This document shows, one piece after another, positions 11,191-26,280 of a stretch of 64,000 bases of DNA. The notes beneath the pieces were generated by a model that saw only the letters and a list, made by a program, of their open reading frames with translations, had not been told where the DNA came from and searched no databases. Made by a program: the position numbers and the translations under genes. The stretch comes from Escherichia phage vB_EcoM_LNA4. The stretch is from sequence record MZ311864.1, one strand, 5' to 3'. The first letter of the stretch is position 1, and every line of letters begins with the position of its first letter.

Positions 11191-11224
11191 AAAAAGGCTC
11201 CCAATCGGGAGCCTTTCTTTTTAT
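11191..11224. terminator. bidirectional rho-independent terminator at strand switch
   Basis: AAAAAGGCTCCCaatcGGGAGCCTTTCTTTTT; convergent genes on both sides. Confidence 0.7.
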
Positions 11225-11652
11225 ACAGCGTTCTTTGCTTCGCCGTGTTGCCTGTGCCACTCTTCATGATGAATAGGGCATAGCCACATAACCTCTAAAG
11301 GTTTATCATAATCACAATGATGAGCCTGTACATCTTCACTTCCGCAAACCCCACAGGGCTGTTTTAATAGCTTGCCGTCACGGATTGCGTTACCTGTTTT
11401 TATATGCACAGATCTCTTCTTCGGATTCTTCTCAATATACTTCCGTTTTGCACGAGTCGCAGCCTCTTTCCCGATACCTTTAACGTATCGCTCTTTCATT
11501 GCTTTACGCTCAGGATTTTGGTCCCTTACCCGATCACGCTCTCTGAGACAAACCCTACACGAAGCGGTTAAGCCATCTCTCGATGCTGCCCTTTTTCCAA
11601 ACTCTTGCGGGGATTTAAGCTCCCCGCAATTGCTACAATGCTTATAAGTCAT
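11221..11652 (-). CDS. HNH endonuclease
   Basis: Paired CxxC motifs and His-rich HNH-like core (CPIHHEEWH). Confidence 0.55.
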   Translation of the reverse strand: MTYKHCSNCGELKSPQEFGKRAASRDGLTASCRVCLRERDRVRDQNPERKAMKERYVKGIGKEAATRAKRKYIEKNPKKRSVHIKTGNAIRDGKLLKQPCGVCGSEDVQAHHCDYDKPLEVMWLCPIHHEEWHRQHGEAKNAV

Positions 11653-11657
11653 TGATT

Positions 11658-12794
11658 CTAAAAGGGAATATCGTCATCGAAGTCCATTGGGGGAGTGTCG
11701 TCGAAGTCAACAGGCGGTGCCTGAACTGTACCGCTCAGAGGCTCCTGTACGGGCTGTGACGGCTTCTGACCTTCTTCCTGTGCAGTTGCACTAGCATAGG
11801 CATAGAACGTCGCTGCAAGGGCATACGCTTCGCGTGTTGCCTTCTCAAGTTCATCTGCGTCGATAGTCTTGCCTTTAACAGCAATTGTCGTTACAGCAAA
11901 CTTAACCGCATTGCCAACTGTCTGGCCTACATCCTTACCTTCAACCTCTGACAGTTCTTTAATCAGCTTGGTTGTGACATCATGTACCACCTTACCAGCA
12001 GCCTCTACATCACCTTTAAAGCCGGAAAGCTTCAGGTTAACGAGGGCATTCATGGCATGACCAGCAGACACACCGACAGGATCATAAGGTGTACGCTTAC
12101 CTTTTCCCCCTGCTCCACCACCCTGACCAGCAGGGCCATAGGCCTTGAAGCTGTTGATGATGTTACCAGTTCCCAGATCAACGAATGCCGCCAGACGACC
12201 ACCTACAGATACCTCTGCCAGTTGCTCATCAGAGAGAACTACACGACCCTCACCTTGTTTCTCATCGTTCACAACTGCAACGTTGCCTTCGATAGACAGG
12301 ATTTCGCCGTAGATCTTAGCACCCTTTCCACCACCAACCTGTGCAGGAGCACTTGACTGCGGAGGTGCGGCATCTGCCGGGGCATCAACCAGGATCTTGA
12401 TGTCCTTCTTCTTACCCTGATAAGAGGTATTGGTTTTGCCGTCTTTCTCATAGGTCTGTTTCTGGACCGGGTAGATGGAGATCTCCGCACCCGGTAACAG
12501 GTCTTTATAGCTACCGTCAGCCTGCTTCACCTGGAACTGGTTTTCGTATTTCAGGTTCTTAACTTCACCTTCACCGAAAGACACAAACTCATCAACGCCA
12601 CCTGCGGTAAGCAGGATAGAGTAACGGTGAGTTGAGGAAATAGTTTTCCCCGCATTAGGACCCTTGTTGATGTGGGTAACCTTGGCAGAACCATCAGCGT
12701 TGATACGCTTGATGAATACACGCTTGATCACGCCTTTAGCTTTCAGTGCAACGGAATCATCAGCCGGGTTCACTACTTCAGTAATTACGCTCAT
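11658..12794 (-). CDS. single-stranded DNA-binding protein (SSB-like)
   Basis: Gly-rich linker and C-terminal tip MDFDDDIPF identical in style to the E. coli SSB tail; start set at ATG after AAGGAG. Confidence 0.55.
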   Translation of the reverse strand: MSVITEVVNPADDSVALKAKGVIKRVFIKRINADGSAKVTHINKGPNAGKTISSTHRYSILLTAGGVDEFVSFGEGEVKNLKYENQFQVKQADGSYKDLLPGAEISIYPVQKQTYEKDGKTNTSYQGKKKDIKILVDAPADAAPPQSSAPAQVGGGKGAKIYGEILSIEGNVAVVNDEKQGEGRVVLSDEQLAEVSVGGRLAAFVDLGTGNIINSFKAYGPAGQGGGAGGKGKRTPYDPVGVSAGHAMNALVNLKLSGFKGDVEAAGKVVHDVTTKLIKELSEVEGKDVGQTVGNAVKFAVTTIAVKGKTIDADELEKATREAYALAATFYAYASATAQEEGQKPSQPVQEPLSGTVQAPPVDFDDTPPMDFDDDIPF

Positions 12795-12807
12795 TCTCTC
12801 TCCTTTA

Positions 12808-13155
12808 TTACTTAGTTTCTTCAGTCTGGGTTTCAGCATTCACACCCAGAAGTCTATCAACAATCAGGTCTTCAACCTGGCTCAACAGGTTCATCGCGAA
12901 GGACGATGCACCGTTCAGTTGCAGCAGGTTGTTACGATGACCACGAACCCATGCTAAAGCCTCTTCAACAGTGCCGTACTGACCACTGTTGATAACTTTT
13001 AGCATTTCATCACGCATACGATCAGACCCGATGAATTGGCTCATCTGAGCGCCAGCGCTTGAAAGGAATACAACAGTTCCAAACTGAGCCTCATCGAGGT
13101 CAAGGAAGTGTAGTTGTTCAGGTTGTTTGTCGATAGGGGTTACTTCTTCAGTCAT
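12808..13155 (-). CDS. hypothetical protein
   Basis: ORF with GGAGG RBS; start at ATG rather than adjacent TTG. Confidence 0.45.
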   Translation of the reverse strand: MTEEVTPIDKQPEQLHFLDLDEAQFGTVVFLSSAGAQMSQFIGSDRMRDEMLKVINSGQYGTVEEALAWVRGHRNNLLQLNGASSFAMNLLSQVEDLIVDRLLGVNAETQTEETK

Positions 13156-13217
13156 CAATCCTCCATTTATGAGTGAACGGGTATCTTACCCGTTTACACT
13201 CGGTATGTCAATAGCTT

Positions 13218-13424
13218 TTAGCGATTTTTCTTCAGCTTTTCAATGATGCTCGAAACACCAGCCACCCCAAAAACACCAAGGATGAAGAGCACGATCACAC
13301 CAACAATAAAGGCAATACCGAAATAGAGCGGTAGAAGAACAAGCCACCAAGACCAGGTGATCACACCACACAGTTTTAGTGTGATGAATACCAGCGCTAA
13401 TAGCGCCATAAAACCAATTTTCAT
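13218..13424 (-). CDS. small membrane protein
   Basis: 68 aa, two hydrophobic helices. Confidence 0.5.
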   Translation of the reverse strand: MKIGFMALLALVFITLKLCGVITWSWWLVLLPLYFGIAFIVGVIVLFILGVFGVAGVSSIIEKLKKNR

Positions 13425-13439
13425 TTTATCTCCCGTAGG

Positions 13440-13706
13440 TTATGAGTGCATCCACGATGGTATGGCTGAAGAGCCACCCATGAATACAGTGCCTGAAGCA
13501 GCAAATGTGTCCAGTGTGCTATCGAGGCCGTTATCAAAATCAACAGCCTGTGGCTTATGCGTCGTCGCTGGAAGCCCACAACATGAGCATTCAAGTGTTG
13601 ATACATAGCCCTCAACCACAGCGTCTGTCTTATGTCCGTGAGGACACCAGAACGATGTCATCTGTTTCAATCGCAACTCCCACTGAAAGAAGAGCTTGAA
13701 TCGCAA
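13440..13706 (-). CDS. hypothetical Cys-containing protein
   Basis: 88-aa ORF overlapping the next ORF in another frame. Confidence 0.3.
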   Translation of the reverse strand: MRFKLFFQWELRLKQMTSFWCPHGHKTDAVVEGYVSTLECSCCGLPATTHKPQAVDFDNGLDSTLDTFAASGTVFMGGSSAIPSWMHS

Positions 13707-14173
13707 GACGAATACGAGTCGTGACTACTTGATGAATGACTCGGTGTATGATGGGAATACGTGTCGCTGATCGTTGTTGTGTTGATGAACACAGCATCAT
13801 CATTTCGACGACGATAACTATCATCATCAGAAACAACACGACTCCGTGGTGGTGCCGGAGGAGCAGGTGGTCGGCTCTTAGACGCAGTTACTGCCCTCTT
13901 CAACTCTTCTGCCTTCAATGGCTTTGCATTGGGTCCAGGAGATGTCTTCGCAGGTGATCGTTCCACAGCAATAGCTTTGGTAACGATCTTCTGTTCTGCA
14001 ACAGTATTCACGGCTTTTGTTGCAATCTCCGAGATCTCTTCCTTTGTCAGGGGAGGGATCTTTGTGACCGTTGTGGTTGTTTGCGAAACAAACGTTGTGT
14101 TGCCGTTACCGACAGTTACAACCGTGTTGTCGGAAGAAAACAGACTCGCCAACCATTTGAAAAATTTACGCAT
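13667..14173 (-). CDS. hypothetical protein with low-complexity C-terminus
   Basis: 168-aa ORF, N-terminal hydrophobic segment; 3' part overlaps 13440..13706. Confidence 0.35.
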   Translation of the reverse strand: MRKFFKWLASLFSSDNTVVTVGNGNTTFVSQTTTTVTKIPPLTKEEISEIATKAVNTVAEQKIVTKAIAVERSPAKTSPGPNAKPLKAEELKRAVTASKSRPPAPPAPPRSRVVSDDDSYRRRNDDAVFINTTTISDTYSHHTPSHSSSSHDSYSSCDSSSSFSGSCD

Positions 14174-14444
14174 AAAATTCCTCCAGTACCTTCCAGATTG
14201 TGTTCAGTTCCCCGCCAGACATCAGGCTCCAGATCACCATGTCCTGATAACCCTTTCGGCAAACATCCGTCTGACGGAATGCTTTGTGGAAGCTCGTTGG
14301 ATTATCCCAATCAACCGGGAGATCGTCAACGTTCTTTTTGAAATAAGAGAGAACGAGTTTCTCTTCCATGTTTGGATTTTCACCCAAACTCGCTTCGTAC
14401 ATCTCTACAAACTTCTGCCCGGTACGTTCTGACTTCATAACCAT
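14166..14444 (-). CDS. hypothetical protein
   Basis: 92-aa ORF in operon context. Confidence 0.45.
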   Translation of the reverse strand: MVMKSERTGQKFVEMYEASLGENPNMEEKLVLSYFKKNVDDLPVDWDNPTSFHKAFRQTDVCRKGYQDMVIWSLMSGGELNTIWKVLEEFYA

Positions 14445-14806
14445 TCGCCAGTCTCCATTTGTTTTGGTGTCAGGGTTTTAACCTGGTTGTCGTCAACTGG
14501 TGCGAACCCAACCACAGGTTTGAAGCAACGCTCTTTCTGTGCATCGAACACATAGAACGCCTCTACCGCCGCTGGCTTGGTACACGTTGTCCAGTGACGC
14601 TTATACATCCCGTACCCGTCAAGGTATGTTGAAAGGTAGTTAAATAGCGTACCGCCACCACCAACCATAAGTGCAATAGCGATCACATAGGTCTTCCATG
14701 AAGATCTGAAAGAAATAACCAGCGCCCAGATCAACATCATTACATACATCATAACCGCTGGAACCCAGTTATTGTGCATGGTAAGCCATTCCCAAAATCC
14801 AATCAT
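14435..14806 (-). CDS. membrane protein
   Basis: 123 aa with hydrophobic segments. Confidence 0.5.
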   Translation of the reverse strand: MIGFWEWLTMHNNWVPAVMMYVMMLIWALVISFRSSWKTYVIAIALMVGGGGTLFNYLSTYLDGYGMYKRHWTTCTKPAAVEAFYVFDAQKERCFKPVVGFAPVDDNQVKTLTPKQMETGEWL

Positions 14807-14809
14807 TCC

Positions 14810-15379
14810 TTACCCTCCAAAAGATGAGCGACTGCTCACAGAGCTACCAAAACCACCACGAGAAGATGTGGTGCTACGAGAAACCGTTGTACGAGGAGAC
14901 TGCACTGTCGGCTTTGCAGCAGAGCTTGTCACCTTGAACGTTTGACCAGGACGTGCATTGTAGCTACGGAACTTATTGTCCATATACTGCCCTGAACGAT
15001 CCTGATACAGCGGTGCTGAATGATAACCGGAGTTCATGCTGTTACCCATCATGTACCCCATCATCAACGGCATCCATGAAGAACCGCTGTCTGAACTGCT
15101 TGGGTTGTGTCGGCACTGATCACCGAACTCAGCGTAGCAGTCAGAGTAAGTAGCATAGCGTGGCGCTGTTTCATTTGCAACCTTTTCTGCTTCCTGTCTT
15201 GCTGCACGACACTGATCTGGTTTGTGCGTATCTGCAATACACTCATCAACATTTTTGTACATCTTCATGTCGATGTCTGCTTGCTCACAACCTGCAACTG
15301 TGATTGCTACCGCAAAAGGCAGGGCATAGCGCCCCACCTTCCGGAAAGCATTCTTATTGATATGCTTTGTTCTTTTCAC
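14810..15379 (-). CDS. YgiB-like (DUF1190-like) lipoprotein
   Basis: Signal peptide with lipobox VAGC; conserved-looking PRYATYSDCYAEFGDQC and WMPLMMGYMMG motifs; Ser/Thr-rich tail. Confidence 0.6.
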   Translation of the reverse strand: MKRTKHINKNAFRKVGRYALPFAVAITVAGCEQADIDMKMYKNVDECIADTHKPDQCRAARQEAEKVANETAPRYATYSDCYAEFGDQCRHNPSSSDSGSSWMPLMMGYMMGNSMNSGYHSAPLYQDRSGQYMDNKFRSYNARPGQTFKVTSSAAKPTVQSPRTTVSRSTTSSRGGFGSSVSSRSSFGG

Positions 15380-15393
15380 TTATCCACCTTTAC

Positions 15394-15573
15394 CTAAACT
15401 AACGAGGGCATCACTGCAACCAGTGCGCCTGCGACCATCCCGATAAACATTCCGCCACCAACTAACCAACCAAAATCCCCTGTTCCAAACTTGAGGCCAC
15501 CGCAAAATGCTGTAAGCACAGAACAGACAGTGATTAAAAGAAATACACTTATGAATACCAGTACCTGTTTCAT
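15394..15573 (-). CDS. small membrane protein (59 aa, below ORF-track cutoff)
   Basis: GAGGA RBS then ATG; hydrophobic MKQVLVFISVFLLITVCSVL... Confidence 0.4.
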   Translation of the reverse strand: MKQVLVFISVFLLITVCSVLTAFCGGLKFGTGDFGWLVGGGMFIGMVAGALVAVMPSLV

Positions 15574-16277
15574 TTTGATTCCTCTTTACGCCACTTGTAA
15601 GCACCATACACAGAGTTTAGCAGGAAAGTGACCCACATTGCAAGGTTTGCTGCTCCAGCACCTTCGTGGTGTAACGTCAGGTTAACCCACATACCTACCG
15701 CAACGATATTCACAATGATCCACACATACCACTGTTCAGCATAACGAGTCATCATTAAGTATGTTGCCAGTACAGACAGGATAGCTGTCGCTGCATCTGG
15801 ACCTGGAAGTGAGCCTTTCAGCAGGGAGATCCCTTCGGCATACAAACCAATCACAATCAGTGTACTAATACCCACCAACCAACGTTGTTTTGTGGTCAGA
15901 TAGTTCTTGATGACATCTGCACGTTCACCGTCAGCAGAAACGTTCAGCTTACGCGCCCAGATAATACCACCAATGACCTGCATAGGGGTGAATAGGACGG
16001 TGTACATGATCGTTTCGCCATACAGTTTATATGTGAATGACACATACGCATACAGCACTGTCGCGATGAAGCCCCAATAGTAGCTGGAAAGTTTACCTTT
16101 CGCAACCAAAATTGCACCGACGATACCTGTCACGGAAGAGATAAACTCCACCATAGTACCACCAGTGACGATAGAAACTGTCGCGATGGATGCGGAACAG
16201 ATCAGAAGCCAGAGGTATTCGAGTTTTGTCCAACCATAGAAGTCTGTCCAGGTTGTTTTTACGTATAGATTCATCAT
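15570..16277 (-). CDS. pnuC: nicotinamide riboside/NMN transporter PnuC
   Basis: 235 aa multi-pass membrane protein with PnuC-like Trp/Gly-rich helices; AGGAG RBS. Confidence 0.75.
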   Translation of the reverse strand: MMNLYVKTTWTDFYGWTKLEYLWLLICSASIATVSIVTGGTMVEFISSVTGIVGAILVAKGKLSSYYWGFIATVLYAYVSFTYKLYGETIMYTVLFTPMQVIGGIIWARKLNVSADGERADVIKNYLTTKQRWLVGISTLIVIGLYAEGISLLKGSLPGPDAATAILSVLATYLMMTRYAEQWYVWIIVNIVAVGMWVNLTLHHEGAGAANLAMWVTFLLNSVYGAYKWRKEESK

Positions 16278-16301
16278 GTAATCTTTTCTCCTGTGCCTAA
16301 T

Positions 16302-16529
16302 TTATAAGGTTACTTGCTCTAACGTTAAAGAGGTTAACCCATATTTTTCTGGTTGTCCAGCAAATTCTTCTTCTGTGTAAGAAAAAGACCAGGAACTCCC
16401 ACGAGCGTCAAACATATCGAACCGTGCAGTGTTCATGTCCGGTGCTTCGATGCAGACGTAGAAGTTGCCGAGAGACATTCCATCCTTCGTCTGTTGGTTC
16501 ATCCCGAAGGTGAAGTAGTATTTGTTCAT
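16302..16529 (-). CDS. hypothetical protein
   Basis: 75-aa ORF between pnuC and nadR-like genes. Confidence 0.45.
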   Translation of the reverse strand: MNKYYFTFGMNQQTKDGMSLGNFYVCIEAPDMNTARFDMFDARGSSWSFSYTEEEFAGQPEKYGLTSLTLEQVTL

Positions 16530-16810
16530 AGAATGCTCTCCAGCCTTTTCAGAAGCACTTCGATCTTTGGATTCGCTGCACCGTTACCGTACAACTTATA
16601 CTTAAGATCCAGTACAGCGTCAAGCAATTCTGGTGCTGCTGCGATCAGTTTTGCATTTGCACGGGCCTCTTCGTAATCCGTCCCGTAACACTTAGCAACC
16701 TTCACATCATGCAGAATACCAGTCCCGACTTCTGTGCCGTCATTAGTCCAAGGACCAGGGGAATATTTAACCATTTTGGCTCCTTTGTTTAGCCCATTCA
16801 ATTGCCGCAA
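16526..16810 (-). CDS. hypothetical protein
   Basis: 94-aa ORF; start may be internal. Confidence 0.4.
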   Translation of the reverse strand: MRQLNGLNKGAKMVKYSPGPWTNDGTEVGTGILHDVKVAKCYGTDYEEARANAKLIAAAPELLDAVLDLKYKLYGNGAANPKIEVLLKRLESIL

Positions 16811-17105
16811 GTATCACATCGCAATGACATGCTACTTCTTTGTTCGGCTGTTTACAAAAGCATACAAGGTCTTTACCGTCCAAGTCAAGCAGATCTTGAA
16901 TAGTTATTTTGCCTGCGCGGATCTGTTGCCATAACCAGACACGATATCTTTCAATTGTGGCCCCACGAGGCTCATCCTTCGACAACTTATATGGGTTAGC
17001 GAATTTAGACTGCTTCAGACCAAGGTGGGGCATTGCTCGCCCCATGTACTCAGCATTCTCAGGTATCACTTTACCGATGTGGTAGAAGTTGAGCACCTTA
17101 GCCAT
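16767..17105 (-). CDS. DUF4326-like protein (CxC...CHC motif)
   Basis: 112 aa with CFCKQ...CHCDV motif. Confidence 0.45.
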   Translation of the reverse strand: MAKVLNFYHIGKVIPENAEYMGRAMPHLGLKQSKFANPYKLSKDEPRGATIERYRVWLWQQIRAGKITIQDLLDLDGKDLVCFCKQPNKEVACHCDVILAAIEWAKQRSQNG

Positions 17106-17530
17106 TAGAAATCCATCCTACTATGAAGCTCCGCTGACATCTCCTTCACCCACTGGGTGATTGGAATATCCTCGTAAACATCGTCGAGCAAAGAGTCCGT
17201 CAGCAACCAAATGATCGCATTGCGAAGATGCTCATCCGACATGCGGGTGATCCGGACAACATTACCTTCCTGTGTTTTCCAGACGAGAATCTGCTCTTTC
17301 TTTTCAGGCCTTGGAAGCATATCATACCCAGCAGGAGCAATCATAATACCATTACAACCGCACAGGCAACGTGTGATCATCTTTTCCCGTTCTAGGAACA
17401 TCAGGGCATTATCAACCACGTCAGTGCTTAGGTTCAACGCCTCTTCGATCACGTAGTGAAAGGTCCATGCCTCAGTTCTCTCCAAATCCTCACTCAGGAA
17501 CTGTAGGATTGCCAGATTAGTTTGATCCAT
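17105..17530 (-). CDS. hypothetical protein
   Basis: 141-aa ORF. Confidence 0.45.
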   Translation of the reverse strand: MDQTNLAILQFLSEDLERTEAWTFHYVIEEALNLSTDVVDNALMFLEREKMITRCLCGCNGIMIAPAGYDMLPRPEKKEQILVWKTQEGNVVRITRMSDEHLRNAIIWLLTDSLLDDVYEDIPITQWVKEMSAELHSRMDF

Positions 17531-17882
17531 CTTTATCCCCTTTCAGGTACGAGATAATCCAGTCTGCCGCCTCTTCGTACTTCTCATAACCAAAGTATTT
17601 ACGACGAGAAAAATATGTGTCGTCATCAGGAACATTGGTCTGATAGTTGAAGTTCCCTGGTTGTCCCCAGTACACATTGATCTGGTCACTGTTACGGCAT
17701 TCAGAGAAAGAAACTTGCTTCGAAAGATCATTCTCACAACTGTGATTCCATTTGGTGATGGAGAACCCTTGTTCACGACAGTTTGCGTATGCCTGAAGTC
17801 CTTCTGATAACTCTGGGGCCTTTTCCAGAATAACCTTCAAGATTCCAAAAGCCTGCTTCATGCTTGAATTACTTACGTTCAT
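17517..17882 (-). CDS. hypothetical protein
   Basis: 121-aa ORF. Confidence 0.45.
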   Translation of the reverse strand: MNVSNSSMKQAFGILKVILEKAPELSEGLQAYANCREQGFSITKWNHSCENDLSKQVSFSECRNSDQINVYWGQPGNFNYQTNVPDDDTYFSRRKYFGYEKYEEAADWIISYLKGDKDGSN

Positions 17883-17883
17883 C

Positions 17884-18957
17884 TTATTCTCCTTTGATAT
17901 TCAGCAAGTTACGGACAGCTTCTTCGGCCTTTTGAATACGATCTTCGTAATCACTGCCGGAGATAACCACCACCTTGCTTGTATCGTAAGATGCTCTGAT
18001 CATTGTGTCAAGCAAAGAATGTGTTTCTTTACGCTTTTCTGGAGTATCCTGCAAGCGAAGAGGATCAGCAACCCACGGAACCTCTGGGGTGAGGAACAAG
18101 AACAAGTCATAGAAATTGTAGCCCTCTTCACGGCTCAGTGTCCGGAACAGCAGATCTGAGTAATCGATCTTGTCTGCACAAACACCAGAGAAGTGTGTGA
18201 TCAGATTTGTGGTGTCGGAGAACATTACCCCACGGTCACCCCAACCTGCCACCTCCATCTCCTTCAGGCGGTGCTCCATTGCAATACGCAGGTAATCCTC
18301 ACGGGTCATTGCAAACTCGCTTGAATGATACTCACGCTCACAGATCAGCCTTCCGATCTCAGGAATCCAGGCAGCACCGAACGTGTGTGCCAAGTGTTCG
18401 GTCATGGTCGTTTTTCCTGTGCTCTCTACACCAATGATAGCCACCTTCTTAATGAAGCGCTTACGTGCAGGCCACGACAAGTGGTAGAAATTCTTGTACG
18501 GGTCATTACGGATCATTGTGGCTGAGACAGGAACAGCTTTACGTTCTGCGTCGATAACAACATGCTTCGCTTCAGGGAAGAACTCACTGAAGTAAGACTC
18601 GTACTCCGGCTCAGAAGAGAAAGCAAAGTCGTACTTAACGAAAGGTTGTTTTTCACGGATCAGTTTTGCATAAGCAGCACCGCCTTCAGGGTATCCGGGG
18701 ATATTCGACTCATCAACGTAGTCAACCTTCACGTTATCCAGACCCTCATCGGCAATAACATCCAGCAGGTCACGATAGCGGTCAGCAAGGCCCAACTTTG
18801 GACGAATCCACTCTGGTTGAGCGTCAACAAATTTCTGGTCATACGACAGGAACAGATACAGGCAACTTACCTGCGAGGCCGCCTGGCGAATGAACTCAAT
18901 ATGCCCGTTGGTCAGCGGTGCAAATTTTCCGAAGATAAGGCCGCGAGTCATAGTCAT
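17884..18957 (-). CDS. nadR: NadR-like bifunctional NMN adenylyltransferase / ribosylnicotinamide kinase (no HTH domain)
   Basis: GKFAPLTNGHIEFI nucleotidyltransferase motif and C-terminal Walker A IIGVESTGKTT; start at ATG after AAGGA RBS. Confidence 0.75.
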   Translation of the reverse strand: MTMTRGLIFGKFAPLTNGHIEFIRQAASQVSCLYLFLSYDQKFVDAQPEWIRPKLGLADRYRDLLDVIADEGLDNVKVDYVDESNIPGYPEGGAAYAKLIREKQPFVKYDFAFSSEPEYESYFSEFFPEAKHVVIDAERKAVPVSATMIRNDPYKNFYHLSWPARKRFIKKVAIIGVESTGKTTMTEHLAHTFGAAWIPEIGRLICEREYHSSEFAMTREDYLRIAMEHRLKEMEVAGWGDRGVMFSDTTNLITHFSGVCADKIDYSDLLFRTLSREEGYNFYDLFLFLTPEVPWVADPLRLQDTPEKRKETHSLLDTMIRASYDTSKVVVISGSDYEDRIQKAEEAVRNLLNIKGE

Positions 18958-18958
18958 A

Positions 18959-19279
18959 TTATTGATCCTTCTGGCATTTGTAGACTTGTGACACACGGGT
19001 CACAGACTTTTTGGTTGGGTTGATAGATGACCCCTGATACCAGCGAGACTCTTCGCTCAGAACATTCCCCACCTGAGCATCCTTTTTAGGGATCACTGTG
19101 TCGATGCAGGTCTCACCCATACTATCCTTCATATGGGACCAAATGCTCAGAGAAAAACGCTCGATCTTGTTGCACACCTCGACCTTGCACATAGGTTCGG
19201 TCTGGAAATCATCATCTTCTTCCGCATGGGCGGCTCCAACAAAAGCCATAGCCAGCAGAGCAATCGTTAATTTTTTCAT
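18959..19279 (-). CDS. secreted/periplasmic protein
   Basis: Signal peptide MKKLTIALLAMAFVGAAHA; Cys-containing mature part. Confidence 0.5.
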   Translation of the reverse strand: MKKLTIALLAMAFVGAAHAEEDDDFQTEPMCKVEVCNKIERFSLSIWSHMKDSMGETCIDTVIPKKDAQVGNVLSEESRWYQGSSINPTKKSVTRVSQVYKCQKDQ

Positions 19280-19312
19280 TTGAATCTCCTCTTGAGATTA
19301 TTTGTTCAGGAT

Positions 19313-19519
19313 TTAGTAACGAGACCACTTCACGCGACCACCGTCGCAGATCAGTTTGTTCTCAACGACAACACCATCAGCACTGTTTGCGAGGCGTTGT
19401 TCACCGTTAGGCTTACAATTATGGGTGACGGTATCTGCGATGTCAACAACAATAAACACCGCAACAACAATTATTCCGACAACCACCAAGGGTTTAATCC
19501 AAGGCATGTGACCACGCAT
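19313..19519 (-). CDS. small membrane-anchored protein
   Basis: AAGGAG RBS then ATG (MRGHMPWIKPLVVVGIIVVAVFIVV...). Confidence 0.45.
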   Translation of the reverse strand: MRGHMPWIKPLVVVGIIVVAVFIVVDIADTVTHNCKPNGEQRLANSADGVVVENKLICDGGRVKWSRY

Positions 19520-19529
19520 TTTATTCTCC

Positions 19530-19724
19530 TTACCAGTTTGAGGCATCAACAATCATTGCACCGAAAATCAGCACAAAGACTTCAAACATGAACATACACA
19601 ATCCGCCGCCCAGAATGTCGTTAGTTTGTTGCTGGTAGTCTGCTGTATAAGCAAGACCAAGCGTGGTGAGCATTGTCAGTGCCATAAGGCACAGGACGGC
19701 ACAAATAAAGTGCGAAAGTTTCAT
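19530..19724 (-). CDS. small membrane protein
   Basis: GGAGG RBS then ATG (MKLSHFICAVLCLMALTML...); upstream part of the longer ORF is the terminator. Confidence 0.45.
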   Translation of the reverse strand: MKLSHFICAVLCLMALTMLTTLGLAYTADYQQQTNDILGGGLCMFMFEVFVLIFGAMIVDASNW

Positions 19725-19748
19725 AGGTCCTCCGTTATTAACTCCCAT

Positions 19749-19783
19749 AACAATAAAGCCCCTCAACCGTGAAGTCAAGGGGC
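19749..19783 (-). terminator. rho-independent terminator
   Basis: AGCCCCTTgacttcacggttgAGGGGCT hairpin with T-rich tail on minus strand. Confidence 0.55.
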
Positions 19784-19790
19784 TTTAAAA

Positions 19791-20189
19791 TTATTTTTTC
19801 AATCCAACAATCCAAGTTAACACGTTGTCTGGTAATTTGGTGATGGTTTTGTACATCTTCACTTCGTCCTTAGTGAGGACACGGATATTCTCATCAACAC
19901 CCACATTATTGTGGTAATCGAAATCAGCATCTCTCTCAATTAAGGTTAGATAATTCCCCTCGCCGGACTCTGGAACATTTCGATGATGTTTAGACCAGTA
20001 GCGTTCAGCGATAAATAGATCCCCTTTTCGATCCCCCGCTAACTTGACGATAAACTTATTCATAAGCTTATCACGAAGAATTATAGACAGGGCATGGGGG
20101 TCCAAACTATCAGCCACCCGGAGGACCTCAGCATCGCCCAGCTCCACATCCACGGTTTGCACCGTGGTTTGTGTGCCTTTTACCTTCAT
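19791..20189 (-). CDS. hypothetical protein
   Basis: 132-aa ORF. Confidence 0.45.
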   Translation of the reverse strand: MKVKGTQTTVQTVDVELGDAEVLRVADSLDPHALSIILRDKLMNKFIVKLAGDRKGDLFIAERYWSKHHRNVPESGEGNYLTLIERDADFDYHNNVGVDENIRVLTKDEVKMYKTITKLPDNVLTWIVGLKK

Positions 20190-20386
20190 GCCTTATCTCC
20201 AAGCAGACCTGGGGGGACAGGAAGGTCCTGCCAGTGTGTGACTGTGAGATTATTTCTGAAATCCCCATCATCCCAGCGTCCATCTTCTGAGCGGAAGGCG
20301 ATCCACAGGTTCTCACCATCAGTGACCAGAACGTATTTACCCACTGAAGGCAACCAAACTTTGCATGAAACCCAATCAGTAAACAT
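20186..20386 (-). CDS. DUF551-like protein
   Basis: 66 aa; W..LP...GKYVLV...THWQDLPVPP pattern. Confidence 0.5.
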   Translation of the reverse strand: MFTDWVSCKVWLPSVGKYVLVTDGENLWIAFRSEDGRWDDGDFRNNLTVTHWQDLPVPPGLLGDKA

Positions 20387-20388
20387 AA

Positions 20389-20862
20389 TTAAATCCTCGC
20401 TTTGTTATTTACAATAGTGGAGATAACCGACTGATTAACTCCGTATAACCTTGCTAACGCTCTCGTTCCACGATCCCTTGAATACGGAACATATGCATCT
20501 CTGATCTCAGCCACTTGTAAATCTGTAAGCTTATGATGAGGATGCTCCTCATTCTTAACAGGCTTCAAAAGTCCGGTCTCTGAGGCATGTTCCATATTCT
20601 CTTTTACGGTTGACCATTCGAGATTATCAACATGGTTGTTCTCTTTGTTACCGTCCTTGTGATTAACAAAGGGTTTGTCATCAGGGTTGGGAATATACTG
20701 CATTGCTACCAGTCTGTGAACAAGAAAGTTCCTAATCTTCCCATCTATAGTTGTATGAACCTTCATGTACCCATTTTTAAGACGGGTTTGTTTTATGACA
20801 TTGCCCGTCTTTACCCTGGTAACAACCTTTCCGTCAACACTAACAACGAACAGGCTGTTCAT
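20389..20862 (-). CDS. HNH homing endonuclease
   Basis: HRLVA...NHKDGNKENNHVDNLEW HNH core; sits beside the DNA polymerase gene. Confidence 0.65.
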   Translation of the reverse strand: MNSLFVVSVDGKVVTRVKTGNVIKQTRLKNGYMKVHTTIDGKIRNFLVHRLVAMQYIPNPDDKPFVNHKDGNKENNHVDNLEWSTVKENMEHASETGLLKPVKNEEHPHHKLTDLQVAEIRDAYVPYSRDRGTRALARLYGVNQSVISTIVNNKARI

Positions 20863-20888
20863 AAAACTCCTTATAAATCAATAACCTG

Positions 20889-23603
20889 TTAATGGCACTC
20901 GGCCCAGTTGCGGCCTGTTAAGTAAGCCCCAGTAATCATGACCGGAGAACCCATCATCTTAGCGGCTTTCTCGACACATTTCACAACCATCTCACCAACA
21001 GGGCAATACTGGATCTTGATCTTGCCGTCTTCACCAAAGATACCTTCGTAAACGGTGTTGCCTTCAGCATCTTTGACCTTTTCCCCATTCTCATCCTTGA
21101 CAGCTTTTCTCCACTCGTGACCGTCGAATACACGGCCCTTTGCTTCCCACTCTGTGACAAAGGCGGTAGCCTCTTCAAGAGTATCGAACTTCCATTTCTT
21201 CAGGTACTTTTTAGGGACCTGAAGCTGGTATTCATCGTGGTAGTAAATCAGGCGACGAACATCGTCATCATACCATCCACGCTTGATCAGTTCCCAGTGC
21301 AGCAGGATACCAACCAAGTCGAACAGAGAAGCACCACCATTCTGCTGGTAAGCATTCAGAAGTGAGTGCTTGGAGCGGGTCCAGATTTTACGACCATCTA
21401 AACCAGGAATGTAACGTTTTCCGGTTGCTTCCCAGAAGTTTTCAAGCCACTCTTTACGACCTTTCAACCCAAAGTTACTATCCCAGAAAGCATCAATTAC
21501 CGCCTGTGCTTTGTCAAGCGAGATGTTCAGCATTGCTGCAATCTTCGCTGCCTGAGCACCGTACATGATACCGTATGTTACACCCTTACCACCGTTACGA
21601 GTAACGAGAGTTCCGGACGCTTTGGTGTACGCCTCGGCGTTTCGTGCGTGAGCATCTCCACTTTCCATGATGCGGAGATATTCACCGCCGTCAAATTGAT
21701 ATGCACCCCATGCGGCGATCATACCTTCCAGGTTGGAACCGTCAATACCTACCTGATAGTATTCATCGGTGACACCCCAAAGCCCTCGCATCTCTTTACC
21801 CAGCAACACCTTAGGATCAGGTTTAGGCATGTTTGCACAAATGGTGTGCTTACAGCGGCCTGTGTTCGTGATCCCAGAGAACCTTGCTGGAAGTTTACCA
21901 TCAATCGCCAGGCGAGGGTGGTTCAACAATCCAGTGTCGTTCTTATCCTCGTCGATAGGGTCGAGAACAGAGCGACGGTTACGCAGTGACAGCCACTTAA
22001 CAATCTGTTTAGCCAAGTGAACATCAATGCGTTCAAGGTTCGGACATAGCTTACCAAAGTTATCCTTCAACTGTGGTGAGGTAGGCAACTGTCGTGCCTT
22101 ACGTCTGAACTTCTTGAATACCTCAGCATAACCCTTATCAGAGGCATGACGCAAGTCAAATTTTCGCTCAGAGATATTAAATTTTTCATCAGAGTTATTC
22201 AAGTGCTCAAGGATCAAAGACTTGTACTCAGATTCAGCAAGCTCTTCGATGTATTTACGAACTAGTTCATCCTGTTCCTCATCAGAACGGGCTTTTTTGA
22301 ACTGGTCCTTGGACACATCCTTCACACGCCACAGCGTAGGCTTCCAGCCTGCGTCCCTGATCAGGTATTTCTTGATGTCGTCCTGGTTAGAGATCTTCAT
22401 CGGAACCATCAGGTCAGGCATCTTCCCGTTTCGCAAATCCTCTTTAGCCTTCTCCATCAGGTCAGGAGGCAACGGAACAAGGGTGTTTTCCTTGTTAAGT
22501 TGAGACCGGATGAAGTCTGCAAAGTGCATAGGGTCTTCAACACCATTTGCAATGCAGTAGCGCTCTCCCGCTGCACTCACTTCTCCGTTGGTCTTAAAGG
22601 CGGTCTTAGGTGGTCCTTTGAACTCCAAAGCTTCACGATTTACCGGATAACCCAACTTGAATTCTAGCCAGTTCCAGCCGTGGTGTGAGATGTTTCCTGC
22701 ACCATCAAACGGGTTAGCTGGGAACTTTGGCTGTTGAGATTTTGTCATCTCTTTCATAGGAAGTAAAGGTTCAACCTCCTCTTCGATCTCGTGCATCATA
22801 ACATCAATGCGATCACGAAGTTTCTCAGCCTCATGCTTGTTGAACGGAACACCCTGAATCTCTTGCTCAATCATCAGGTAATCCGTCAGCATACGGCGAC
22901 GAAGAGCGTTTTTCCAGTTAATCTGACGCATACCTTCGGGTTTATCCGTATACATAAACTGCTTATCATCAGGCCAACGAGCACCAGTGGATTCATCAAT
23001 CAATGCTTTCCACGTCAGTTCGTTGATCAGAACGTCTTCCCACACACGGTTAACGTACTCCCAGAGTGGTTGGTTACGCCAGTCATCAATCTGAACTTTC
23101 TTGTTCGCTACACGATAACCCCATGCAAGTAAGCCATGCGGCCCCACACGGTCACGCTTCCCTGTCACAGGGTTCAGTACAGAATCAGGACAACCATTTG
23201 GTAACGGGCGGTCTGGGTACAGAACACGACTCATTGACAACGTATCGTACAGGTTGACCTGGGTGTCCCCGATAGTCCCCAGGCACTTAGGGTCTTTGAA
23301 CATATCGTATTCAATGCCGGACAGCTTCTTCCAGAGGCGCAGGTCGTAACCAAAGAGGTTATGACACGCAATCCCACGGCAAGTTTTAAGGAACGCCTCA
23401 AGCTCGTCATAAGAGCGGATCGTGAGATTGGCTTCCGTCTTGCTTCGTGCGTATGTTACCGCACTTTCGTACTCTGGGTGTGCAGGATCTAAAAACAGAT
23501 TCCAGTTGTTAACACCATACTCCTTTAACAGGGTGCAGTGGTACTTCGTTACCTCTTCTAACAGGCCATCGGCCTCGTTATCGAGTATAAATAAACCTTT
23601 TAT
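20889..23603 (-). CDS. family A DNA polymerase with 3'-5' exonuclease domain (T7 gp5-like)
   Basis: ILDNEADGL exo motif; RNGGKGVTYGIMYGAQ and YYHDEYQ polymerase motifs; ORF track starts at 23303 but the frame is open upstream to the exo domain with no ATG/GTG/TTG; 5' end set at AUA after AGGAGG. Confidence 0.8.
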   Translation of the reverse strand: MKGLFILDNEADGLLEEVTKYHCTLLKEYGVNNWNLFLDPAHPEYESAVTYARSKTEANLTIRSYDELEAFLKTCRGIACHNLFGYDLRLWKKLSGIEYDMFKDPKCLGTIGDTQVNLYDTLSMSRVLYPDRPLPNGCPDSVLNPVTGKRDRVGPHGLLAWGYRVANKKVQIDDWRNQPLWEYVNRVWEDVLINELTWKALIDESTGARWPDDKQFMYTDKPEGMRQINWKNALRRRMLTDYLMIEQEIQGVPFNKHEAEKLRDRIDVMMHEIEEEVEPLLPMKEMTKSQQPKFPANPFDGAGNISHHGWNWLEFKLGYPVNREALEFKGPPKTAFKTNGEVSAAGERYCIANGVEDPMHFADFIRSQLNKENTLVPLPPDLMEKAKEDLRNGKMPDLMVPMKISNQDDIKKYLIRDAGWKPTLWRVKDVSKDQFKKARSDEEQDELVRKYIEELAESEYKSLILEHLNNSDEKFNISERKFDLRHASDKGYAEVFKKFRRKARQLPTSPQLKDNFGKLCPNLERIDVHLAKQIVKWLSLRNRRSVLDPIDEDKNDTGLLNHPRLAIDGKLPARFSGITNTGRCKHTICANMPKPDPKVLLGKEMRGLWGVTDEYYQVGIDGSNLEGMIAAWGAYQFDGGEYLRIMESGDAHARNAEAYTKASGTLVTRNGGKGVTYGIMYGAQAAKIAAMLNISLDKAQAVIDAFWDSNFGLKGRKEWLENFWEATGKRYIPGLDGRKIWTRSKHSLLNAYQQNGGASLFDLVGILLHWELIKRGWYDDDVRRLIYYHDEYQLQVPKKYLKKWKFDTLEEATAFVTEWEAKGRVFDGHEWRKAVKDENGEKVKDAEGNTVYEGIFGEDGKIKIQYCPVGEMVVKCVEKAAKMMGSPVMITGAYLTGRNWAECH

Positions 23604-23629
23604 GATTCCTCCTATGCAAGGCTGCTTGA

Positions 23630-24253
23630 CTATACTGTCGCAGCGTCTTGTCTCATTTTATAAGCAATGCCTTTTAATCTCGCAACAAGATCGGGATTGG
23701 CATAATCCTTCTCTTCGTATTCCTCAACCATCTCGGCCAGCAATTTAGATTTTGCTAGCAACCATGCTTTATGGGCCTCCAACGCAGTCGAAAATCTACC
23801 CAGTGTTTTGGAAGATATCTGTGCTCGATAAAGCCCCCTATCTAAAGAAACACCCATTGGCAATCCATTCTTACTTATGGAACAGTTAACCAATAAGGAA
23901 TTTAGTTTTTTAGGGACAAAGACACAAGTATCTGGACCATAGACCTTGTTTCCCTCCACCAAGAGGTCTTTATCAAGGTCTAATCCTTCTCCGTTGAGCC
24001 ATGCCTCGTGGCATGGTTGTAACTGGACCCACTTTTTAAAACGCGAAAATACTAACCACTCTTCACAGACATAGACATCGGCATATGTTTTCCTCCTGGT
24101 TTTGAATTTTTTAGAAATACCCCTTTCCAACATACTCCTCCAAAGAGTGTGGTACGGGCATCTCCACAAGGTTACCTTTTTTCCCTCTATTGTTACTGAT
24201 TTGGTAACGGGATAGTCAGCATCGTTTATACCCATGCCACACTTATTGGTCAT
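23630..24253 (-). CDS. hypothetical protein (possible homing-endonuclease-like)
   Basis: 207-aa ORF between primase-helicase and polymerase genes. Confidence 0.4.
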   Translation of the reverse strand: MTNKCGMGINDADYPVTKSVTIEGKKVTLWRCPYHTLWRSMLERGISKKFKTRRKTYADVYVCEEWLVFSRFKKWVQLQPCHEAWLNGEGLDLDKDLLVEGNKVYGPDTCVFVPKKLNSLLVNCSISKNGLPMGVSLDRGLYRAQISSKTLGRFSTALEAHKAWLLAKSKLLAEMVEEYEEKDYANPDLVARLKGIAYKMRQDAATV

Positions 24254-24264
24254 AATAATCGTCC

Positions 24265-26280
24265 TTAGAACGGGGTATCATTCTCGAATTCTGCGGGGTT
24301 AGGAAGCTGAACAGGAGAATCCATAACAGGCGCTGGCACGTTGACCTTGCCTACCGGAGTCTCAAGTTGCAGAGATTGAATCATACCTTCAGGGCGGAGC
24401 ATAACCACCCCATCAAGTTTGAACATCCCGTCTTCCCATACCCAACCAGACGCATCAGTGAATTGTCCGTTTTCATCCATGATCATAGTGTCAGCAACAC
24501 CAAGTTTTTTGTGTGGGCGGTTCTTCATTACAACCACACGCACACGTCCACGAGAACGGTCTGGCAGTTCTTCTGGTTCAACACCTAATACAATCCAGGA
24601 TAATTGCTCCAGTGCAGCAGAACCACGCAGGTCTTCTTTACGTACAGGATACCAGAAAGGCAACATGTTGCCGTCTTTGTCCTTCGGTAGCTGAAGTTCC
24701 TTACGCTTCATGTGGCTAATGCTGAGAATGAACACATCGTACTGCTTACAGAATGCCGCAAGCTCGGTCATGATGTTGTCCAGATCTCGACGTTCGTTAT
24801 CCGACTTAAGGCCAGAGATAACCATGCTGAGGTGGTCAAGGATAATCCACTTACAACCATCCAGGAATACCATCTGCTTCAGCTTCTGAATCAACTGGTC
24901 CGTAGGGATAGAGCCGAAGTGATCAAAGATCTTGATCTTGTCTTCCTTAATCCATCGTTGGTGAATCTCCAGGTGCTGCTCTTCGGTCAGGAACTGCTCA
25001 GGGTCTGCCACGAAAGCTTTAGGGTCAACCTTCAACTCCTCAGCGTACAAGCTGTTTACAGATTCTTCCTCGTCCTCTTCCAGACGGATGATCGCAACCT
25101 TTTCATGTTCAGTCCAACCATCAAGACGAGGGATGCTCATATCTCGAAGGTAGTTCACAATGGCATACTCGATCTTACGTGAGATTGTTGACTTACCACC
25201 ACCAGAAGGGCCAGTTAGTGTCCACAACTCACCAGTACGAGGACCTTTTGTTAACTCATAAAGACGAGGCATACCAGGTAACGGGACACCATCTTTCTTC
25301 TTCTTGCGAAGGTTTTCGATGGTAATGTTGCTCAGGCTGATCAGTTTGTCAGGGACATAGCGATCTTCTGCCTTGGAGAACATGTTCCAGATCTCACGAC
25401 CCTTACCCGCATCGTACATGTCACGAACGTCTTTAACCCCGGAAGGATCATTTCGTTCATTGGGGTAACGTGCCACAAAGATGTTGTCTGTCAGCAGGAA
25501 TGCTGCCACATCGTCTGTTGCTTCTTTACCTTTCTTGACCTTACGTTCCTTTTCCAGAGCGGTTGCTTCATCGTTATCAAAACCGAGAACAACCTTCTCA
25601 TAGCCACGAATGAACTTCTCGTTATTGGCAAAGGTATCTACTGCGTTGGCTGTGCCACAGTTTAATCCGACAAACGGTAATGTCGGAACACCTGCAATCT
25701 CTTCACCGTTCTGAATAGAGGCGATACCTTTCAGAACGCTTGCAGCCCAATCCTTAACACCCTTCGGTGCATTAGGGCTTGCTTGCAGAGCTTTCACGAA
25801 CTCAAAACCTGCCTGCCAACCAGCGGTAACATCCCCCTCGCCCTCTACAATGAAGATCTGTTTACGACCTGCGCCCATAGCGGCTTCGTGTTGACCGAAG
25901 AACTGTGAAGCGGCCTTAACAGTCCCCACAACAGAAAAGTGACCTTTCTTCTCTTTCGGCAGGGTCCAGTCACGTTTTTTATATCCAGTCAGCTTACCGT
26001 ACTTGTCGTAATATGGCAAATAGGTGGCTGTGATCGTCACACCGTCACTTGGGGATACGGATGAACGGATCTTAAAATACTTTGCTGCGTCGAGAGAGAG
26101 GCTCATTTCAGGAACTGGCAGAATGCGGGTGCCATTGACTACAGATTCCAGGGTCTCTTCTTCACGTTGCTGATAACTCACTCTTCCTCCACGATTGCCT
26201 TTACTTCCAAAATTCTGCGCTTTCGGGTTCTCCTGTCCACCTTGTCGGTAAGCAGCCCAATCCGGACCATTTCCCATCAT
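24265..26280 (-). CDS. primase-helicase (T7 gp4-like: Toprim-like N-domain + DnaB-like helicase)
   Basis: Walker A GPSGGGKST, DnaB-like motifs, acidic C-terminus ending DTPF; no N-terminal Cys4 zinc finger. Confidence 0.75.
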   Translation of the reverse strand: MMGNGPDWAAYRQGGQENPKAQNFGSKGNRGGRVSYQQREEETLESVVNGTRILPVPEMSLSLDAAKYFKIRSSVSPSDGVTITATYLPYYDKYGKLTGYKKRDWTLPKEKKGHFSVVGTVKAASQFFGQHEAAMGAGRKQIFIVEGEGDVTAGWQAGFEFVKALQASPNAPKGVKDWAASVLKGIASIQNGEEIAGVPTLPFVGLNCGTANAVDTFANNEKFIRGYEKVVLGFDNDEATALEKERKVKKGKEATDDVAAFLLTDNIFVARYPNERNDPSGVKDVRDMYDAGKGREIWNMFSKAEDRYVPDKLISLSNITIENLRKKKKDGVPLPGMPRLYELTKGPRTGELWTLTGPSGGGKSTISRKIEYAIVNYLRDMSIPRLDGWTEHEKVAIIRLEEDEEESVNSLYAEELKVDPKAFVADPEQFLTEEQHLEIHQRWIKEDKIKIFDHFGSIPTDQLIQKLKQMVFLDGCKWIILDHLSMVISGLKSDNERRDLDNIMTELAAFCKQYDVFILSISHMKRKELQLPKDKDGNMLPFWYPVRKEDLRGSAALEQLSWIVLGVEPEELPDRSRGRVRVVVMKNRPHKKLGVADTMIMDENGQFTDASGWVWEDGMFKLDGVVMLRPEGMIQSLQLETPVGKVNVPAPVMDSPVQLPNPAEFENDTPF

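Follow-up and report, generated by a model that had tools for sequence, protein, structure and literature searches.

Escherichia phage vB_EcoM_LNA4 (sequence record MZ311864.1), from which a stretch of 64,000 nucleotides (hereafter, the window) was analyzed, encodes a protein of 378 amino acids with the C-terminal tip of the SSB (single-stranded DNA-binding) protein of Escherichia coli: its last 11 residues, PPMDFDDDIPF, are identical at 11 of 11 positions to residues 168-178 of E. coli SSB (PDB 1eqq_A; MG1655 ssb). The primase-helicase of the same phage has a related acidic end which, read at the end of its gene (24265..26280, minus strand), is PNPAEFENDTPF (PAEFENDTPF), followed by the stop codon. 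Both ends had been pointed out, as MDFDDDIPF and ENDTPF, in an initial annotation of this DNA, and both are confirmed here. The interpretation toward which we lean, with some reserve, is that the 378-residue protein is a replicative SSB with a genuine SSB C-terminal (SSB-Ct) tip and likely host partners, and that the helicase tail tethers the phage DNA polymerase. The 14.6-kb region in question is Vequintavirinae-type phage DNA (genus Seunavirus; rV5/PVP-SE1-like), its nucleotide identity being 90% with both Enterobacter phage EC152 and Cronobacter phage GAP31 and 87% with Escherichia phage 4MG, and the genes for the SSB-like protein, the polymerase and the primase-helicase form one leftward replication cluster on the minus strand.

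The two tails stand out in the phage proteome. A screen for last eight residues with at least three D/E, no K/R and an aromatic end, applied to open reading frames (ORFs) of at least 40 aa, was passed by 2 of the 481 ORFs in the window, namely, the SSB-like protein and the primase-helicase, and the same screen of the 930 ORFs of GAP31 yielded NrdB (...EGETWDF) as the sole additional case. The NrdB tail is presumably the one by which the small subunit of ribonucleotide reductase docks on the large subunit; the metabolic region of GAP31 (locus L075 of our set, 3052-3984 and 8085-9224) encodes a ClpP-like protease subunit along with this NrdB. F is the last residue in 111 of the 112 homolog clusters of the SSB-like protein, which are 34-97% identical to the query, when an extension that some carry past this F, described below, is set aside; the exact DFDDDIPF is found in 75 of the 111, down to 34% identity, and positions -8 to -1 have an entropy of 0-0.96 bit. 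In the primase-helicase clusters (48-100% identity), the terminal F is present in 109 of 120 and the P before it in 105, and the entropy outside P-F is 1.25-2.4 bits (DNDTPF, DSDSPF, MDGSPF, DEDCPF and others), with acidity and P-F the only features retained across the family. An origin of the tips by chance is ruled out by the exact 11-mer, the 2 of 481 ORFs and the conservation across homologs. So is a recent capture of the 3' end of the host ssb gene: the codons under the identical tip residues differ from those of E. coli ssb in 7 of the 10 degenerate cases, so the identity is held by selection on the peptide rather than by recent DNA transfer. Judging from these patterns, the tips are not random, and strong purifying selection acts on them.

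A host-type tip on a phage SSB is in itself a known and common arrangement: tblastn with the tip finds it in at least 588 phage records, including P1 Ssb and many SSBs of Vibrio, Escherichia, Klebsiella, Salmonella and Yersinia phages. A locus search with the family alignment latched onto the tip, and most of what it retrieved were unrelated SSBs. The novelty lies in the protein family that carries the tip and in the related tail on this phage's helicase. Of 126 non-fragment representatives of the wider family, 91 end in ...[IVL]PF and 15 in other acidic-aromatic tips (DLPW, LDF). Several distant members (P0320, P0328, P0338, P0347, P0359 and P0378) end in ...DDIPFN or ...DDIPFS, with one residue past the Phe, and others in DLPW, DIPW or LDF, which possibly match the SSB tips of other host groups. 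Half-repeats like PPVDFDD, which precedes the tip in the window protein, also occur in Klebsiella and Proteus phage homologs (PAMDFDE-PPMDFDDDIPF).

The longest ORF for the SSB-like protein (11658..12839, minus strand) ends in APPVDFDDTPPMDFDDDIPF at the stop codon, a TAG that directly follows the Phe codon, so that the terminal Phe has a free alpha-carboxylate; the start is most likely M16 at 12794, because the homologs begin with MSVITE and an AAGGAG lies 6-7 nt upstream. The name SSB-like had been given in the initial annotation for the tail, and sequence comparison does not bear it out: no Pfam family, including the PF00436 SSB profile, is matched at E ≤ 0.01, a PDB search with the sequence gives no significant match, no relationship to T7 gp2.5 is seen in sequence or fold, and the matching PHROG family, 4477, is labeled 'unknown function'. 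All 113 homologous clusters and all named members are likewise labeled 'hypothetical protein', except for one mislabeled 'tail fiber protein'. The predicted structure, by contrast, supports the name. The AlphaFold2 model (56-sequence alignment; mean predicted local distance difference test score, pLDDT, 78.6) consists of two beta-barrel domains, a helical domain and a disordered tail, and the model of the homolog P0017 (mean pLDDT 78.8) has the identical domain plan. The second barrel (residues 158-221) has five predicted strands with a helix between strands 3 and 4 and contains the invariant K160, R200, F216 and Y219, the four-helix domain is the most broadly conserved segment across the family, and residues 339-363, with pLDDT below 50, are predicted to be a disordered linker ahead of the tip. 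The best Foldseek matches in the PDB are single-stranded DNA (ssDNA) binders with tandem OB folds, that is, Oxytricha TEBP-alpha (1k8g, E 4.5e-4), POT1, RPA and Teb1, so the model has the OB barrels of this structural class; RecO and telomere end-binding proteins are also among the structural matches, and the search of viral models returned members of the same family and weak matches to phage SSBs.

A profile search retrieved 214 clusters at 50% identity with two architectures, one of 360-420 aa with two OB folds and the helical domain and the other of 250-300 aa with one OB fold, the second being absent, and the helical domain. The short form is exemplified by gp244 of the Phapecoctavirus ESCO13, which also has the tip EEPPMDFDDDIPF and is also convergent to a tail gene. 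Homologs of 295-317 aa with this single OB fold and the helical domain are encoded in ESCO13 (L080, 652-1539) and Pseudomonas phage PsgM04F (L077, 422-1375), labeled 'hypothetical', with the same tip and the same convergent tail gene; the family and its synteny thus reach beyond Vequintavirinae. The family is universal in Vequintavirinae and Phapecoctavirus-like phages, with its position in the replication cluster preserved. A rival candidate for the SSB of these phages did not emerge: the genome paper on rV5 lists polymerase, ligase and helicases and no SSB (PMC3606486), the annotation of GAP31 over 1-100,000 and 126,047-145,434 (122 of 148 kb) has no SSB entry, and phmmer searches with the OB domain of E. 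coli SSB, the core of T7 gp2.5 and the cores of five other small phage SSBs detect nothing in the window or in GAP31. Given the predicted fold, the 378-residue protein is quite probably the SSB of the phage, of a tandem-OB type that has escaped annotation.

The initial annotation had also drawn an analogy to T7, in which acidic C-terminal tails of gp2.5 and gp4 dock on the polymerase, and this analogy is supported in part. The primase-helicase matches T7 gp4 structures in the PDB over the TOPRIM and helicase domains (5ikn_D, 6n7i_A, 1q57_A; E 6.5e-26 to 3.8e-24), and its helicase domain belongs to PF03796 (DnaB_C) and PHROG 239. The evidence for TOPRIM consists of the gp4 alignment from query residue 201 on, with a weak stretch at 89-152, and a match to the PHROG 47 DNA primase (E 9e-5). 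There is no cysteine in residues 1-200 (25681-26280, minus strand), the first being Cys208, so the gp4-type Cys4 zinc finger is missing despite the TOPRIM region. The polymerase is 28% identical to T7 gp5 over 260 aa (E 3e-22). At the position of the T7 front basic patch it has GKRYIPGLDGRK (GKRY..GRK), a stretch that we take to resemble a basic motif general to family A polymerases. The polymerase ORF is intact over 904 codons; where EC152 has an ATG start, the window has ATA at 23601-23603 (GGAGGAATCATAAAAGG against GGAGGAACATGAAAGG), and the first ATG, GTG or TTG lies 100 codons downstream, beyond the Exo I motif region. Either the start codon is non-canonical, or the ATA is an error of sequencing, or the polymerase is truncated at its N-terminus. 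The tails of the T7 proteins themselves, ...WSNDTDF in gp4 and ...ADEDGDF in gp2.5, are acidic and end in Phe as well. With homologs of gp4 and gp5 and a predicted tandem-OB protein with an acidic tail, the T7 analogy appears structurally reasonable, and so does the idea that the tip mimics that of the host.

The partners of E. coli SSB receive the tip in three places: the Phe side chain enters a hydrophobic pocket, the terminal carboxyl contacts a basic lip, and the Asp residues lie along a basic ridge (PMC10164576). In T7, the gp2.5 tail anchors on the front basic patch of gp5 (K587, K589, R590, R591), and the modelling template, PDB 6P7E, holds a DTDF peptide as a mimic of the C-terminal tail of gp4 (PMC12339929). 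We infer the ssDNA binding and every protein-protein contact of the following mechanism from the sequences, their conservation, the predicted fold and the homology to gp4 and gp5. The two tandem OB folds would bind ssDNA, and the helical domain and the disordered acidic tail would complete the protein. In the free protein, the tip could fold back onto the OB folds, from which it would be let go on ssDNA; the last 8-9 residues so released would dock in SSB-Ct-type pockets, with the Phe in the hydrophobic pocket, the carboxylate on the basic lip and the Asp residues along the basic ridge. Given host partners, DNA coated with the phage protein would recruit host enzymes or compete for them, with the T7-like polymerase of the phage as a possible further partner. 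For the acidic, P-F-ended tail of the primase-helicase, the most likely role is to tether the phage polymerase, in the manner of the T7 gp4 tail.

The argument for host partners comes from the different evolution of the two tails. The SSB-like tip keeps to the host sequence in a protein that otherwise diverges to 34% identity, so the partners of the tip, as far as conservation can tell, most likely include host SSB-interacting proteins; the helicase tail would drift because its partner, the polymerase, is a phage protein that co-evolves with it. The constancy of the tip across phages of Escherichia, Salmonella, Cronobacter, Klebsiella, Serratia, Pectobacterium and Erwinia points to at least one partner that does not co-evolve with the phage. 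The suggestion that the phage protein competes for host SSB partners accordingly gains indirect support from a frozen SSB tail and a drifting helicase tail in the same genomes.

Some relatives carry an extension of 14-16 residues immediately after ...PF, consisting of A-P-[IV]-G-L-Q-Y and 7-9 mostly hydrophobic residues. It is present in 17 of the 113 SSB-like clusters and 2 of the 120 helicase clusters (for example, APIGLQYANHAIYAL and APIGLPYGRNFIHCI, about 15 residues): GAP31 has it on both proteins (L001, 2453-2500 and 14828-14875), PVP-SE1 on the SSB-like protein only (L067, 2745-2792), and EC152, 4MG and the window on neither. Compared with EC152, GAP31 has an exact 45-nt in-frame block between the Phe codon and the TAA, with identical DNA downstream, and both lengths coexist within clusters of at least 90% identity (378/393, 390/405-406 and 390/405 aa). 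Pattern scans detected the extension behind the tips of canonical PF00436 SSBs, other SSB-like families and the helicase, in 43+5 IMG/VR loci (L002-L044, L070-L074), on SSBs of prophages and integrative elements of Pseudoalteromonas, Vibrio, Providencia, Oceanisphaera and Glaciecola (bacterial loci L057-L064), and in cultured phages such as Vibrio phage Val-yong3, Escherichia phage ACG-M12 and Pseudomonas phage PsgM04F. The peptide APIGLQY is encoded by 40 distinct 21-mers in 53 instances, and a homology-based sample, which is free of the bias of the search pattern, contains the same peptide with only I/V, Q/P and A/S changes; a search for the motif found no paper in the library consulted. AlphaFold leaves the extension disordered, which speaks against its folding back onto the protein. 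By-eye comparison with consensus motifs gave no consistent match, whether to a beta-clamp motif, to an ssrA/SspB-like tag or to a frameshift site. When the ORFs of 49 loci were clustered to find a conserved neighbor as partner of the extension, only common recombination genes (RdgC-like, methyltransferase, Rad52-like) came up, and no specific partner. In prophage-like elements, a gene whose 379-aa product joins an RdgC domain to an FtsK-gamma domain immediately adjoins extension-bearing canonical SSB genes (L057, 2622-3761; L061, 4100-5245; 15 IMG/VR loci).

The extension appears to be connected with homing endonucleases. In the window, each of the three replisome genes, those for the SSB-like protein, the polymerase and the primase-helicase, is followed within 5-26 nt by a homing endonuclease gene, and EC152 has none at any of these sites; the endonuclease behind the SSB-like gene sits between the tip and a terminator common to EC152 and GAP31. 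Of 60 extension-bearing genes, 8 have a homolog of this endonuclease (11221-11652) whose start lies within the extension, in a different frame; GAP31_256, ACG-M12 gp32 and the PsgM04F endonuclease are examples (tblastn E 1e-13 to 1e-54), and the loci with such starts include L001 14828-14880, L077 1330-1380, L040, L031, L076, L073 and L041. At the end of the GAP31 helicase gene, ATC TAT GCC CTG TAA (I Y A L stop) overlaps ATG CCC TGT AAG (M P C K), and in PsgM04F, QYGRNFLHCF-stop overlaps MVETSCIASK. Endonuclease-free SSB alleles keep N-terminal remnants in the shifted frame, MVVTSSTVSK-stop in GAP31 and MVETSSIAFNKKK in PVP-SE1. The endonuclease start inside the extension and these remnants indicate that the extension in Vequintavirinae is, at least in part, the trace left by an endonuclease cassette gained and lost at the tip-coding 3' end. 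Dual coding and remnants suggest cycles of invasion and loss at this site, with the conserved tip-coding DNA apparently serving as the homing site. A loss of the extension through insertion of the endonuclease is ruled out, as EC152 and 4MG have neither.

Because the seven first residues are conserved as a peptide under 40 different 21-mers, the extension may also be a functional device carried by the endonuclease, perhaps a mask of the tip, a segment cleaved off to restore the tip, or a new docking or degradation signal. More generally, it is a tentative and somewhat doubtful proposal that phage SSBs and the Vequintavirinae helicase have, at their C-terminal Phe, a hot spot for a mobile in-frame cassette, found on at least four other SSB-like families besides the canonical SSBs in phages and prophages of Enterobacterales, Vibrio, Pseudoalteromonas and Pseudomonas.

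Several observations weigh against a docking tip with host partners on a replicative SSB. No sequence model, be it from Pfam, PHROG or the PDB, calls the protein an SSB; the polymerase shows no specific equivalent of the T7 basic patch, with only GKRY..GRK aligned there; and GAP31, PVP-SE1 and rV5-like phages are viable with 15 residues past the Phe and no free carboxylate there. Since the basic lip of the SSB partners anchors the terminal carboxyl (PMC10164576), canonical docking should be blocked by the extension unless it is removed, and the free tip may not be essential, as these alleles suggest. Moreover, a frozen tip could reflect several phage partners or an intramolecular role instead of host partners. 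One rival reading is wiring internal to the phage, as in T7, where both tails would dock only on the phage polymerase or other phage proteins, and the identity with the host would stem from descent of the tail module from a bacterial-type SSB or from convergence on an optimal peptide. The helicase and polymerase are indeed homologous to gp4 and gp5, acidity and P-F are common to both tails, a single gp5 site serves both tails in T7 (PMC12339929), and a phage that encodes its own polymerase, helicase-primase, ligase and exonucleases should have little need of the host. Nevertheless, we consider this unlikely: a co-evolving partner should permit drift, as seen in the helicase tail and in DEDGDF of T7 gp2.5, yet the exact host 8-mer is kept across phage genera, and the same tip is found on unrelated SSB families of small phages with no polymerase gene nearby.

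Autoregulation by the acidic tail has been described for E. coli SSB, T7 gp2.5 and T4 gp32. If the tip of the phage protein bound its own OB folds and tuned the affinity for ssDNA and the cooperativity, without being a recruitment signal, an acidic and disordered tail would be expected, the tolerated extension-bearing alleles would fit a role that does not require a free carboxylate, and a precedent would exist in the E. coli tail, for which PMC5928155 cites weak binding to the DNA-binding site of the same protein. Electrostatic self-binding, however, requires neither the exact I-P-F end nor identity with the host motif, and the AlphaFold models, for what weak evidence they give on this point, do not dock the tail on the OB folds, so a purely intramolecular role seems rather improbable. 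Little probability, too, attaches to an OB-fold factor other than the replicative SSB, for instance a recombination mediator or end-binding protein, which the SSB-Ct would take to host SSB sites or which would titrate host SSB partners as a decoy. This would account for the lack of sequence similarity to known SSBs, the unusual architecture with two OB folds and a helical bundle, and the presence of RecO and telomere end-binding proteins among the fold matches, but the family is universal and syntenic in these phages and no other SSB candidate was found in the window, in 122 kb of GAP31 or in the list of the rV5 paper. Finally, the homing endonuclease genes directly behind both tip-bearing genes might mean that the tip-coding sequence is kept as an endonuclease target or a regulatory element rather than for the peptide; with synonymous positions that vary freely under a fixed peptide, both against E. 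coli ssb and among the window, EC152 and GAP31, this is extremely improbable. Thus, a replicative SSB with an SSB-Ct tip and likely host partners, next to a helicase tail for the polymerase, remains the interpretation that we prefer.

Table. Features of the SSB-like, polymerase and primase-helicase genes and their endonuclease neighbors in the window of Escherichia phage vB_EcoM_LNA4
Feature	Position	Strand	Basis or remark
Putative phage SSB gene, 378-aa tandem-OB protein	11658..12794	-	PHROG 4477; homolog starts
SSB-like residues 1-140, first beta-rich OB-type domain	12375..12794	-	Predicted, pLDDT ~88
SSB-like residues 158-221, second compact OB fold, b1-b3/helix/b4-b5	12132..12323	-	Predicted structure
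SSB-like residues 239-337, four-helix domain	11784..12080	-	Predicted structure
SSB-like residues 338-378, disordered acidic Pro-rich tail (10 D/E, 1 K)	11661..11783	-	Predicted structure
Degenerate half-repeat PPVDFDD inside SSB-like tail	11697-11717	-	
SSB-like tip PPMDFDDDIPF	11661..11693	-	= E. coli SSB residues 168-178; TAG stop 11658-11660
T7 gp4-like primase-helicase gene, 671 aa, TOPRIM + DnaB-type helicase	24265..26280	-	
Primase-helicase tip EFENDTPF	24268..24291	-	
Family A (T7 gp5-like) DNA polymerase gene, candidate docking partner	20889..23603	-	
EndoVII/HNH-like homing endonuclease gene, PHROG 2340	11221..11652	-	5 nt past SSB-like stop
HNH_3 homing endonuclease gene	20389-20862	-	Behind DNA polymerase gene
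HNH homing endonuclease gene, PHROG 953	23630..24253	-	11 nt past primase-helicase stop

The analysis offers a probable function for PHROG 4477, a family labeled 'hypothetical' in all the Vequintavirinae- and Phapecoctavirus-type records that were seen, and the family would supply the missing SSB of phages that are explored for therapy and biocontrol. One replisome with two tails, one frozen on the host motif and the other drifting with a phage partner, makes the question of host or phage partners directly testable. The extension in the relatives implies that phages tolerate, or perhaps exploit, masking of the SSB tip; together with the endonuclease cassette, it is a more novel lead than the tip itself.

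Compared with known systems, the SSB-like protein resembles its best structural matches, RPA, POT1, Oxytricha TEBP-alpha and baculovirus LEF-3, in having two OB folds in one chain, but shares no sequence similarity with them, and none of these has a bacterial SSB-Ct. As in T7, there are a gp4-type primase-helicase, a gp5-type polymerase and acidic, Phe-ended tails on the SSB-like protein and the helicase (NDTPF compared with NDTDF in T7); unlike in T7, the SSB-like protein is unrelated to gp2.5 in sequence and ends in the host motif, not in an acidic run of a generic kind, and the primase-helicase is devoid of the Cys4 zinc finger of gp4. The presence of a host tip on the SSB of a mobile element is shared with phage and plasmid SSBs, such as P1 Ssb and the SSBs of Vibrio and Escherichia phages, although P1 Ssb and its kin are canonical, annotated PF00436 proteins and the window protein comes from the unannotated family PHROG 4477. 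Another phage SSB with a C-terminal tail is that of HK620, in which the tail is needed for Sak4 (PMC5928155) and the last six residues, NDYPPF, recruit the phage partner; in contrast to the tip described here, the HK620 tail departs from the host motif, and it is a recombinase that serves as partner. With E. coli SSB itself, the phage protein has in common the last 11 residues, the position of the tip at the extreme C-terminus, the disordered Pro-rich linker and the OB fold, but it is not a PF00436 protein and combines two tandem OB folds and a helical domain in a single chain of 378 aa.

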